Assembly (NCBI GenBank): GCA_000091205.1
Contig: AP006489.2
Source: Cyanidioschyzon merolae
Lineage: Eukaryota
Length of the DNA stretch: 64,000 nt
Reading direction: 5' to 3' (one strand)
Position numbers and translations under genes: made by a program. The notes under the pieces were generated by a model. It was not told the origin of the DNA. It searched no databases and saw nothing but the letters and a program-made list of their open reading frames with translations. Of the stretch, positions 16,052-18,073 are shown one piece after another; the first letter of the stretch is position 1, and each line of letters opens with the position of its first letter.

Positions 16052-18073
16052 ATGCGTGCAACCCTGGCGCCAAGCCTCGCTTCTGCGCTTCAGATAGGAT
16101 TCTGTGCGGGGGTCTCAGCAACCCGAGACGTTCGGGAGTACCACACGACTATGTTTTCAGCAACAGCATTTCTTTCAGCATCTGTTCATACTCGGGGATC
16201 CTGGCTTGGGAGCGAGAAAAAATCCACTGTTTGGTGGAAAAGGGCCAACAGTGTAGCGGAGAGACGGCGTCGCTGCAGCGCGCTGCGTCTGATCATTTCG
16301 CCGGACCAGCGCACTGCGGATCGCTCGGACCAACCCTCCTCAGACGGCAGCAGGGGTGTTACAGGCTCACCAACTGTGCGACGTCGGCGTACAAAGGACC
16401 CATTTAATCCGGATTTCAAGGCGGCACCGCGCTTCCAAGAAATCTACCCGTCCTCCGAGAAGGTGTACCGCGAGGTCGTCCACGAGCCCACGGGTGAACG
16501 CCTGCGTGTTCCGTTTCGGCGTATATACCTTACCAACGGAGAGCATTTGGACGTCTATGACACATCGGGACCACAGGGGTACGACCCGCACGACGGTCTG
16601 CCGAAACTGCGTCAGAGGTGGATAGAGCGGCGAGAGAAGCGCGGGGATCCGTGCTTTACGCAACTATACTACGCGCGCAAGGGCATCATCACCGAAGAGA
16701 TGCTCTTTGCTGCCGTACGCGAGAACGTTGATCCAGAGTTTGTACGTCAAGAGGTTGCAGCTGGTCGGGCGATCATCCCGAGCAACAAAAAAGCGCTCGA
16801 ACTGGAACCGATGGTGGTTGGACCCAACTTCAGCGTCAAAGTGAATGCGAATTTCGGTAATAGCGCCGTCGCATCCAACATCGAAGATGAAGTCGAGAAA
16901 CTCCAATGGTCGGTGCTCTGGGGCGCCGACACGGTCATGGACCTCAGCACCGGCGAGCACATACCCCTGGTGCGCAACTGGATCCTGCGCAACTCGCCCG
17001 TCCCGGTGGGCACTGTACCTATCTACGAGGCACTGGATAAGGTTGGCGGAGTCGTCGAGGATCTCAACTGGGAGGTATTCCGCGACACAGTCATCGAGCA
17101 GGCCGAAGCCGGAGTGAGTTACTTCACGATTCACGCCGGTGTTCGCCTGGCTTACATTCCGCTCACAGCGCGTCGCTTGACAGGCATTGTTTCGCGCGGC
17201 GGGTCCATTCACGCCAAGTGGTGTATCGCACATCGCAAAGAGAACTTTGCCTATGAGCACTGGGATGAGCTCTGTGAAATCATGCGTCAATACGACGTTG
17301 CGTTCTCCATTGGTGACGGCCTACGTCCGGGATGTATCCACGATGCCAACGACGAGGCCCAGTTCGCTGAGCTTAAAACACAAGGCGAGCTGACTCGTCG
17401 CGCTTGGGCGTTCGATGTGCAAGTAATGAACGAAGGACCAGGCCATGTTCCGTTGCATAAAATCCCGGAGAACATGGAAAAGCAGAAAAAGTGGTGCTCA
17501 AGCGAAGATGGTTCCATGGGACCGGCGCCCTTCTATACGCTCGGCCCACTGGTCATTGACCATGCTGCTGGGCGTGATCACATCTCAAGCTGCATCGGTG
17601 CAGCCAACATCGCCATGCATGGAACTGCGTTGCTGTGCTATGTGACTCCGAAGGAACACCTTGGCCTGCCCAACGCTGACGACGTGAAAGAGGGCTTGCT
17701 GGCCTATCGAATCGCTGCACATGCAGCAAACCTGGCCAAGGGGTTACCAGGTGCCCAGGCTCGTGACGATGCCATCAGCAAGGCTCGATTTGAATTTCGC
17801 TGGAGCGATCAGTTCAACCTTTCTCTGGCACCGCTTGATGCGAAGCGCCATCACGATGAGGCGCTGCCGGCGGAGGCCGCCAAGTCTGCTCCTTTTTGCT
17901 CTATGTGCTCGTATGATTTTTGTTCGATGCGCATCACGCAGGATATTCGCAAGTTTGCGGCTGAAAACGGTTATGGAACGGGCATCACGACTGGAATGGA
18001 TGCGTTACCCATCCACCCGCATGAATGTGAATCTTTCGTGCAGGCGGAGAATGAGCATACCAAATCACTCTAG
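16052..18073 (+). CDS. THIC: Phosphomethylpyrimidine synthase ThiC (radical-SAM, thiamine pyrimidine moiety) with a ~130-aa N-terminal transit-peptide-like extension
   Basis: 673-aa ORF. Near end-to-end ThiC similarity ([77 protein letters not shown]-terminal Fe-S motif [11 protein letters not shown]). The leader is S/T/R/A-rich with no acidic residues. Confidence 0.9.

Follow-up and report, generated by a model that had tools for sequence, protein, structure and literature searches.

A single-exon nuclear ThiC gene of the red alga Cyanidioschyzon merolae and its putative plastid-targeting leader

The DNA analysed here, a 64,000-nucleotide (nt) stretch of the Cyanidioschyzon merolae contig AP006489.2 that is referred to below as the window, carries an open reading frame (ORF) for the thiamine biosynthesis enzyme ThiC at positions 16052 to 18073 of its plus strand. 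The locus raises the question of what an enzyme that is typically bacterial is doing in an intron-free ORF among eukaryotic genes, where its protein starts, and whether the sequence ahead of its conserved part directs it to the plastid. Our answer, given with high confidence, is that the ORF is a single-exon nuclear gene of C. merolae 10D for a presumably plastid-targeted phosphomethylpyrimidine (HMP-P) synthase, ThiC. The gene, the organism and the likely plastid location are already known from databases and the literature (Huang & Gogarten 2008).

Identity of the gene and its catalytic residues

In the ORF list the frame runs without interruption or intron through 673 amino acids (aa) and a stop codon, and its product is identical across all 673 residues to BAM79672.1 / XP_005535958.1 (UniRef100_M1VBH6), the "thiamin biosynthesis protein" of C. 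merolae 10D. Its family is established by Pfam PF01964 (ThiC_Rad_SAM), which covers aa 203-630 with an E value of 1.2e-170 and 568 bits against a cutoff of 25, and by the NCBIfam ThiC equivalogs, which all scored above their cutoffs (NF006763, 795.5 vs 650 bits; TIGR00190, 625.3 vs 460; NF009895, 567.6 vs 410). A preliminary description, made from the letters of this DNA alone, had called an intronless ThiC gene at this place, which is borne out by these searches and by the uninterrupted codons.

Exact matches were also found for 11 other ORFs of the window, all of them to proteins from the same 584,452-bp record as BAM79672.1 (range BAM79667-BAM79679). Therefore, the window is a piece of nuclear chromosome from C. 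merolae 10D, a finished chromosome of a nearly intron-free red alga, and the neighbouring genes fix the taxonomy. The eukaryotic neighbours that had been recognised at the outset (RPN7, RPB9, the RNA polymerase III subunit RPC1, RIO1, SEL1L, a purple acid phosphatase and a LETM1-like gene) are all present in the window. The last two had also been put forward as support for a plastid-bearing lineage; the genes are there, but neither is specific to plastid lineages, and they carry little weight.

The closest solved structure is that of Arabidopsis THIC (AtThiC; PDB 4S25-4S29, 4N7Q), with an E value of 8e-260 (about 1e-259) over aa 112-653. Like AtThiC, the C. merolae protein is nuclear-encoded and has an N-terminal leader, an N-domain, a radical S-adenosylmethionine (SAM) core and a C-terminal CX2CX4C motif; unlike AtThiC, it has a 7-aa insertion, changes at 25 near-invariant sites and a leader of the red-algal phenylalanine (Phe) type. 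An AlphaFold2 model built from a 15-sequence alignment reached a mean predicted local distance difference test score (pLDDT) of only 39.3 and was set aside, the sequence match to 4S25 making a model unnecessary. The coding sequence and its catalytic parts are as follows.

16052..18073, plus strand: ThiC coding sequence as annotated (100% identity to BAM79672.1 / XP_005535958.1; contiguous alignment to AtThiC, aa 112-653)
16445..16636, plus strand: ThiC-associated N-terminal domain PF13667, aa 132-195 (36.2 bits, cutoff 27)
16658..17941, plus strand: ThiC radical-SAM catalytic core PF01964, aa 203-630 (Pfam, NCBIfam and substrate- and SAM-binding residues)
17444..17446, plus strand: His465, first ligand of the additional Fe/Zn site, equivalent to AtThiC His426 (alignment, PMC4389238)
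17657..17659, plus strand: His536, second ligand of the additional metal site, equivalent to AtThiC His490 (alignment, PMC4389238)
17897..17923, plus strand: CX2CX4C [4Fe-4S] motif CSMCSYDFC, with C616, C619 and C624 equivalent to AtThiC C570, C573 and C578 (alignment)

The AtThiC residues that bind the substrate aminoimidazole ribotide (AIR), SAM, the additional metal held by two histidines and the [4Fe-4S] cluster were named by Fenwick et al. 2015 (PMC4389238). The two His ligands (AtThiC H426 and H490) are absolutely conserved in ThiC, and the Fe/Zn ion they bind anchors SAM. In a pairwise alignment all 20 are identical in C. merolae ThiC, where they are N267, G269, L298, Y325, H361, S381, R382, G383, D422, R425, E461, H465, Y495, E535, H536, L539, C616, M618, C619 and C624. 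The AIR- and SAM-binding set, in AtThiC numbering, comprises N228, G230, L259, Y286, H322, S342, R343, G344, D383, R386, E422, Y449, E489, L493 and M572. The residues between the cluster cysteines of C. merolae ThiC depart from the usual GPKF.

The N-terminal leader and the start codon

Conserved ThiC sequence begins at D116 (DPFNPDF), and the AtThiC crystal construct aligns from residue 112. Ahead of DPFNP there are 115 aa when the protein is read from Met1, the annotated ATG, and 82 aa when it is read from Met34. An extension had been predicted in the preliminary description and does exist, although it is shorter than the ~130 aa given there. Over residues 1-115 it contains 24% S+T, 11% A and 18% R+K and has a net charge of +13, as against 9% S+T and a net charge of -18 in the mature part, so that its portrayal as a leader rich in S, T, R and A holds in part. 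That it was free of acidic residues is wrong: eight D/E (D26, E29, E55, E70, D85, D90, D93 and D98) lie within residues 1-115, and 11 within residues 1-130. We divide the leader as follows.

16052..16150, plus strand: residues 1-33 (MRATLAP...EYHTT), a probable over-extension of the coding sequence into what would be 5' untranslated region (no cross-genus homology)
16151..16153, plus strand: ATG codon of Met34, where translation probably begins (aligns with the annotated Cyanidiococcus start Met)
16151..16294, plus strand: putative plastid transit peptide, aa 34-81, ending ...CSALRLI (Phe at positions 2 and 7; two D/E and ten R/K)
16295..16396, plus strand: low-complexity linker rich in S, R and D, aa 82-115, shared by Cyanidioschyzon and Cyanidiococcus only (alignment)

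Homology of the leader across genera starts precisely at Met34, whose counterpart is the annotated start of the Cyanidiococcus protein (MKVRVAFLSS). The annotated starts in Cyanidium (MTGVAFVAS), Galdieria (MEAFL), Porphyridium (MEGFAFVP) and Chondrus (MTTPTFVP) fall within 1-2 residues of it, and gene callers picked Met34 as the ThiC start on at least 24 metagenome contigs. The sequences that precede this conserved Met showed no homology between the three genera compared, Cyanidioschyzon, Cyanidiococcus and Cyanidium. The frame is open upstream in all three, and this could be taken as a sign of a longer protein, an idea that was rejected as the sequences are non-homologous. The open frame is better explained by chance, because GC-rich DNA yields long stop-free stretches, and the RPN7 and RPB9 ORFs of the window are likewise over-extended.

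A phenylalanine near the N-terminus is characteristic of rhodophyte transit peptides (PMC9407449; PMC2222254). Read from Met34, the protein begins MFSATAFLS; Phe occupies positions 2 and 7, acidic residues are absent until position 22, and an RLIISP motif stands at 46. Read from Met1, the first Phe comes only at residue 17 and RLIISP at 79. The Cyanidiococcus leader has F7 and RLVISP at position 46, matching the C. merolae motif in its place when counted from Met34. Nearly every full-length leader of other red-algal ThiC has a Phe between positions 3 and 13, and a motif R/K-A/M-V-L-Q/S-E/D, where present, lies at positions 26-51; RLIISP, at the end of the putative transit peptide, resembles the R-[AM]-V-L-[QS]-[ED] form of this motif. 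An early Phe within a hydroxylated, acid-poor N-terminus is therefore seen only with the Met34 start. The protein is extended at its N-terminus relative to bacterial homologues and to the mature enzyme. Because cross-genus homology begins at Met34 and because the N-terminus read from there is of the red-algal Phe type, we consider Met34 (nt 16151) probably the true ThiC start, with good though not full confidence. The putative transit peptide would span about aa 34-81, its cleavage site being placed from the sequence. If the annotated start does lie 33 codons too far upstream, leader-based targeting constructs in C. merolae would be affected.

Taken together with its relatives, the enzyme could follow this course. 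The precursor would be made in the cytosol, most likely from Met34 (nt 16151), and imported into the plastid by its red-algal Phe-type transit peptide (MFSATAFLS...), which would be cleaved at about residues 79-82. The mature stromal enzyme, with its C-terminal CX2CX4C [4Fe-4S] cluster, the second metal bound by two His, and SAM, would rearrange AIR to HMP-P, the pyrimidine half of thiamine. This AIR-to-HMP-P activity in the plastid is a presumed one, assigned from family membership.

C. merolae-like metagenome contigs from hot springs vary naturally around the start. Ahead of ThiC, at 15920-15942, a (GGC)n microsatellite differs between them in both length and sequence. Because of a G/C polymorphism at nt 16005, all six other contigs have TCA where the window has an in-frame upstream TGA stop, and a G-to-T change gives G20V in two contigs. 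In L001, a JGI contig (3300052695), nt 1-90 are about 90 nt of unrelated sequence that stand upstream of ~nt 16111, between Met1 and Met34; the contig may have been joined wrongly in assembly, or it may represent a genuine structural variant without Met1. The 5' ends of short contigs (L090 and L091 at nt 15987, L093 at 16094, L001 at ~16111) were considered as transcript starts and rejected; they are assembly breaks, because the 3' ends of these contigs all fall in a 1.37-kb repeat that lies downstream of the gene.

Relatives, divergence and origin

The closest matches after C. merolae itself are the ThiC of Cyanidiococcus and of Cyanidium, each at 85% identity, with 80-85% for the compared proteins of Cyanidiococcus yangmingshanensis (KAF6000823.1, KAK4533601.1) and Cyanidium caldarium (KAK4537560.1). 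These share the insertion, the substitutions and the neighbours of C. merolae ThiC, and their annotated starts correspond to its Met34; they differ in that the leader is only partly conserved and that in C. merolae the ThiC and amidase genes are additionally separated by a 1.37-kb repeat. Relatives at 71-74% identity follow, and these are algal rather than bacterial since they have red-algal-type N-termini (M..AFV or M..TFV). The next named matches are Porphyridium, Galdieria, Compsopogon, Chondrus and Rhodosorus, and then plant ThiC labelled 'chloroplastic'.

Among the best 80 bacterial loci, the closest ThiC reach 64-66% identity and are mostly from Myxococcota (Polyangia, Enhygromyxa, Kofleriaceae), which is about the identity of plants and many algae. 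The scan that found them covered one genome per prokaryotic species and at most 600 stretches, with patterns derived from the query, and is biased for this reason; no cyanobacterium was among the 80 closest loci that it returned. This result can be read as consistent with the published view of a non-organellar bacterial donor. In Huang & Gogarten 2008 (PMC2530860), the 'ThiC family protein' of Cyanidioschyzon is listed with a plastid location and as a gain from non-organellar 'Bacteria' that preceded the red/green split. The term "plastid-type", used in the preliminary description, is apt as far as the relatives are red-algal and plant proteins and is not warranted in a cyanobacterial sense, given the donor listed in that study. 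Caulobacter crescentus ThiC (PDB 3EPM/4S2A) belongs to the same family and has the same core (E 1.6e-196).

A neighbour-joining (NJ) tree was made from 47 sequences and 488 columns with 200 bootstraps, its bacteria being the 25 most similar from the scan, with no cyanobacteria. In this tree all eukaryotic ThiC formed one clade with 100% bootstrap, apart from the 25 sampled bacteria, whose ThiC form a separate clade and are without a transit peptide. The C. merolae protein thus stands with red-algal and plant ThiC and outside the bacterial clade. Cyanidioschyzon, Cyanidiococcus and Cyanidium grouped together with 100% bootstrap on a long stem branch and did not group with Galdieria. The gene order around ThiC is also conserved. 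The Cyanidium contig keeps RIO1-RPB9-RPN7(-)-ThiC(+)-amidase(-)-GT8/GT64, and RPN7-ThiC-amidase-GT8/GT64 is kept on a Cyanidiococcus-like contig that breaks off a short way upstream of RPN7. Because this order is conserved in both, ThiC has been inherited vertically within the Cyanidiaceae, with no recent transfer. The proposal that a plastid-bearing alga encodes this ThiC in its nucleus and targets it to an organelle is therefore supported by the red-algal source, by the grouping with red-algal and plant chloroplast ThiC and by the Phe leader read from Met34.

The long stem branch has its counterpart in the protein itself. In 42 other ThiC (bacteria, red algae, plants and secondary algae), 246 alignment columns show a conservation of 95% or more; Cyanidiaceae ThiC departs at 25 of these columns, and control taxa at 0-7. 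All but one of the 25 positions align to AtThiC residues, and nearly all of the changes are common to all four Cyanidiaceae sequences and fixed across three genera. Three of them, H614P, G620S and P621Y, lie in or next to the CX2CX4C cluster loop. H305P, T307V and E309N (At266/268/270) fall in a segment that is in contact with the cluster domain according to PMC4389238, and T502I, I504H, P506A and Y508R are also among the changes. The lineage also has an insertion.

17501..17521, plus strand: 7-aa insertion SEDGSMG, aa 484-490, in the WCS-EAPFYT loop (Cyanidiaceae-specific by alignment)

Cyanidioschyzon, Cyanidiococcus and Cyanidium have this insertion, a relative designated P0004 has part of it, and Galdieria, other red algae, plants and AtThiC lack it. 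P0004 also has 12 of the changes, a pattern which suggests that the divergence was stepwise; Galdieria, likewise a thermoacidophile, has none of them. As no catalytic residue is affected, the 25 changes are regarded as lineage-specific drift or compensated change. The changes and the insertion arose on the stem lineage of Cyanidioschyzon, Cyanidiococcus and Cyanidium. That they reflect a functional re-tuning of the interface of the Fe-S cluster domain (affecting, for example, how stable the cluster is, how oxygen or heat is tolerated, or turnover behaviour), and not neutral drift, seems unlikely to us, and the unusual divergence could interest enzymologists who work on this radical-SAM enzyme.

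Several points weigh against a plastid ThiC of ordinary activity that starts at Met34. The official annotation starts at Met1, the longest ORF, and Met1 is retained in all the examined C. merolae-like metagenome contigs that reach this position, so that translation from it is possible; as these contigs are ~99% identical and keep both ATGs, they do not discriminate between the two starts. The use of both Met1 and Met34, giving two precursor isoforms, is a minor possibility. Basic, hydroxylated leaders are typical of mitochondrial presequences as well, and no localisation experiment on C. merolae ThiC was found in the literature. As 25 of the 246 near-invariant positions differ, that the biochemistry is unchanged is presumably true but has to be assumed.

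If these differences were taken at face value, the protein could be a neofunctionalised ThiC-like enzyme, BzaB-like or with an altered reaction. The excess of conserved-site changes over the controls, the 7-aa insertion and the changes inside the CX4C loop (G620S, P621Y), next to it (H614P) and at At266/268/270 would fit such an enzyme, whereas the 20 unchanged catalytic, ligand and cluster residues would not. BzaB (ThiC-like_1, TIGR04386), of the biosynthesis of the B12 lower ligand, has a homologous fold and radical-SAM chemistry, but C. merolae ThiC is not a member of this family (398.2 bits vs a cutoff of 700) while it lies above the cutoffs of the ThiC equivalogs. The fixation of the changes across three genera fits purifying selection on a working enzyme, and no second C. 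merolae ThiC was present among the best matches. C. merolae also grows in vitamin-free mineral medium and must make HMP-P, and we find neofunctionalisation hardly credible.

Other readings concern the origin and the destination of the protein. Extremophilic red algae are known for bacterial gene transfers, and a recent transfer specific to Cyanidiophyceae, in which the N-terminal extension would be no targeting signal, could account for the long branch apart from Galdieria, the 25 changes and a Myxococcota identity as high as that of plants and many algae. Such a transfer is at odds with the single eukaryotic clade, with the red-algal-type leaders of the best matches outside Cyanidiaceae (71-74%), with P0004 as an intermediate of gradual divergence inside the lineage, and with a leader homologous to other red-algal leaders in a neighbourhood conserved in three genera. 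It was rejected on the match list, the NJ tree and the synteny, and we regard it as extremely improbable. A mitochondrial or cytosolic protein, with the leader as a presequence or without function, would agree with the Arg-rich composition (net charge +12 over aa 34-115), but the N-terminal Phe motif, common to red-algal orthologues, is a hallmark of rhodophyte transit peptides (PMC9407449), and the closest characterised homologue is the chloroplast AtThiC, with plastid localisation listed in PMC2530860; this reading is very improbable. Lastly, a typically bacterial gene in an intron-free ORF might be bacterial contamination or a mis-assembly within a eukaryotic contig. This is refuted by synteny: eukaryotic genes lie on both sides in the order of consecutive accessions of the finished C. 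merolae chromosome, two further genera and independent metagenome contigs as long as 94 kb show the same arrangement, and the GC content is uniform across the ThiC region.

Regulation, neighbouring genes and repeats

THIC genes controlled by a thiamine pyrophosphate (TPP) riboswitch are known in plants (in the 3' untranslated region), green algae and several other algal lineages. Across the whole window no Rfam family, the TPP riboswitch (RF00059) included, reached its gathering threshold. A TPP riboswitch was not matched at E<=10 in 15700-19300, where only small nucleolar RNA (snoRNA) and long non-coding RNA matches of chance level appeared, nor was one found in the orthologous Cyanidiococcus-like and Cyanidium loci. 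Unlike plant THIC, the C. merolae gene therefore has no TPP riboswitch in its flanks by Rfam search, a real difference from plant and green-algal THIC which confirms for this alga what McRose et al. 2014 reported for the rhodophytes that they searched (PMC4260697). Just downstream of ThiC, at 18218-18265 on the plus strand, a sub-threshold match to the C/D-box snoRNA sn668 (21.8 bits vs 40, E 0.39) is probably due to chance.

The two genes that flank ThiC belong to the syntenic block.

14127..15806, minus strand: RPN7 (BAM79671.1), divergent neighbour (likely start Met180 at nt 15269)
20263..22296, minus strand: amidase / GatA-like (BAM79673.1), convergent neighbour (exact match, conserved order)

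The other exact-match neighbours are a fructokinase (BAM79667), the purple acid phosphatase (BAM79669), RPB9 (BAM79670), the LETM1-like protein (BAM79675), squalene synthase (BAM79676), the largest subunit of RNA polymerase III (BAM79677), a SEL1L-like protein (BAM79678) and a GNAT protein (BAM79679), in addition to RPN7 (BAM79671) and the amidase (BAM79673). RPN7 is annotated with 559 aa, its Pfam domain starting at residue 241, and its orthologues and metagenome gene calls have 380-398 aa. Its annotated start is likely over-extended, with Met180 (nt 15269) as the likely true one, and the divergent spacer between RPN7 and ThiC would then be ~880 bp. At RPB9 (12669-13163, plus strand) the longest ORF has 164 aa, and the annotated, conserved protein BAM79670.1 has 124 aa and starts at nt 12789, a further case of in-frame open sequence ahead of a real start in a GC-rich genome. 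The fructokinase of the window (BAM79667.1; 4427-5584, minus strand) is a ROK-family sugar kinase in a eukaryotic nuclear context, the ROK family being best known from bacteria.

The spacer between ThiC and the amidase gene is 2.2 kb in C. merolae, ~620 bp in the Cyanidiococcus-like contig and 65 bp in Cyanidium, and its length in C. merolae is due to the first copy of the 1.37-kb dispersed repeat, which begins 265 bp past the ThiC stop codon. This repeat is present in three direct copies (18338-19703, 23602-24967 and 28160-29523) that are 98.5-98.8% identical and all intergenic; its ORFs had no Pfam match, and each copy holds a (GCGGTGCA)x5 microrepeat. The region 27690-34874 (7.2 kb, between the GT8/GT64 gene and BAM79675) is apparently without an annotated protein and contains no ORF of at least 250 aa. 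It holds the third copy of this repeat and a tandem array of 88-bp units at 31260-31963 (~6-8 copies, 97-98% identical), and its GC content dips to 0.50. A second dispersed repeat of 1.35 kb is found in two direct copies, 38375-39725 and 55822-57169, which are 99.1% identical.

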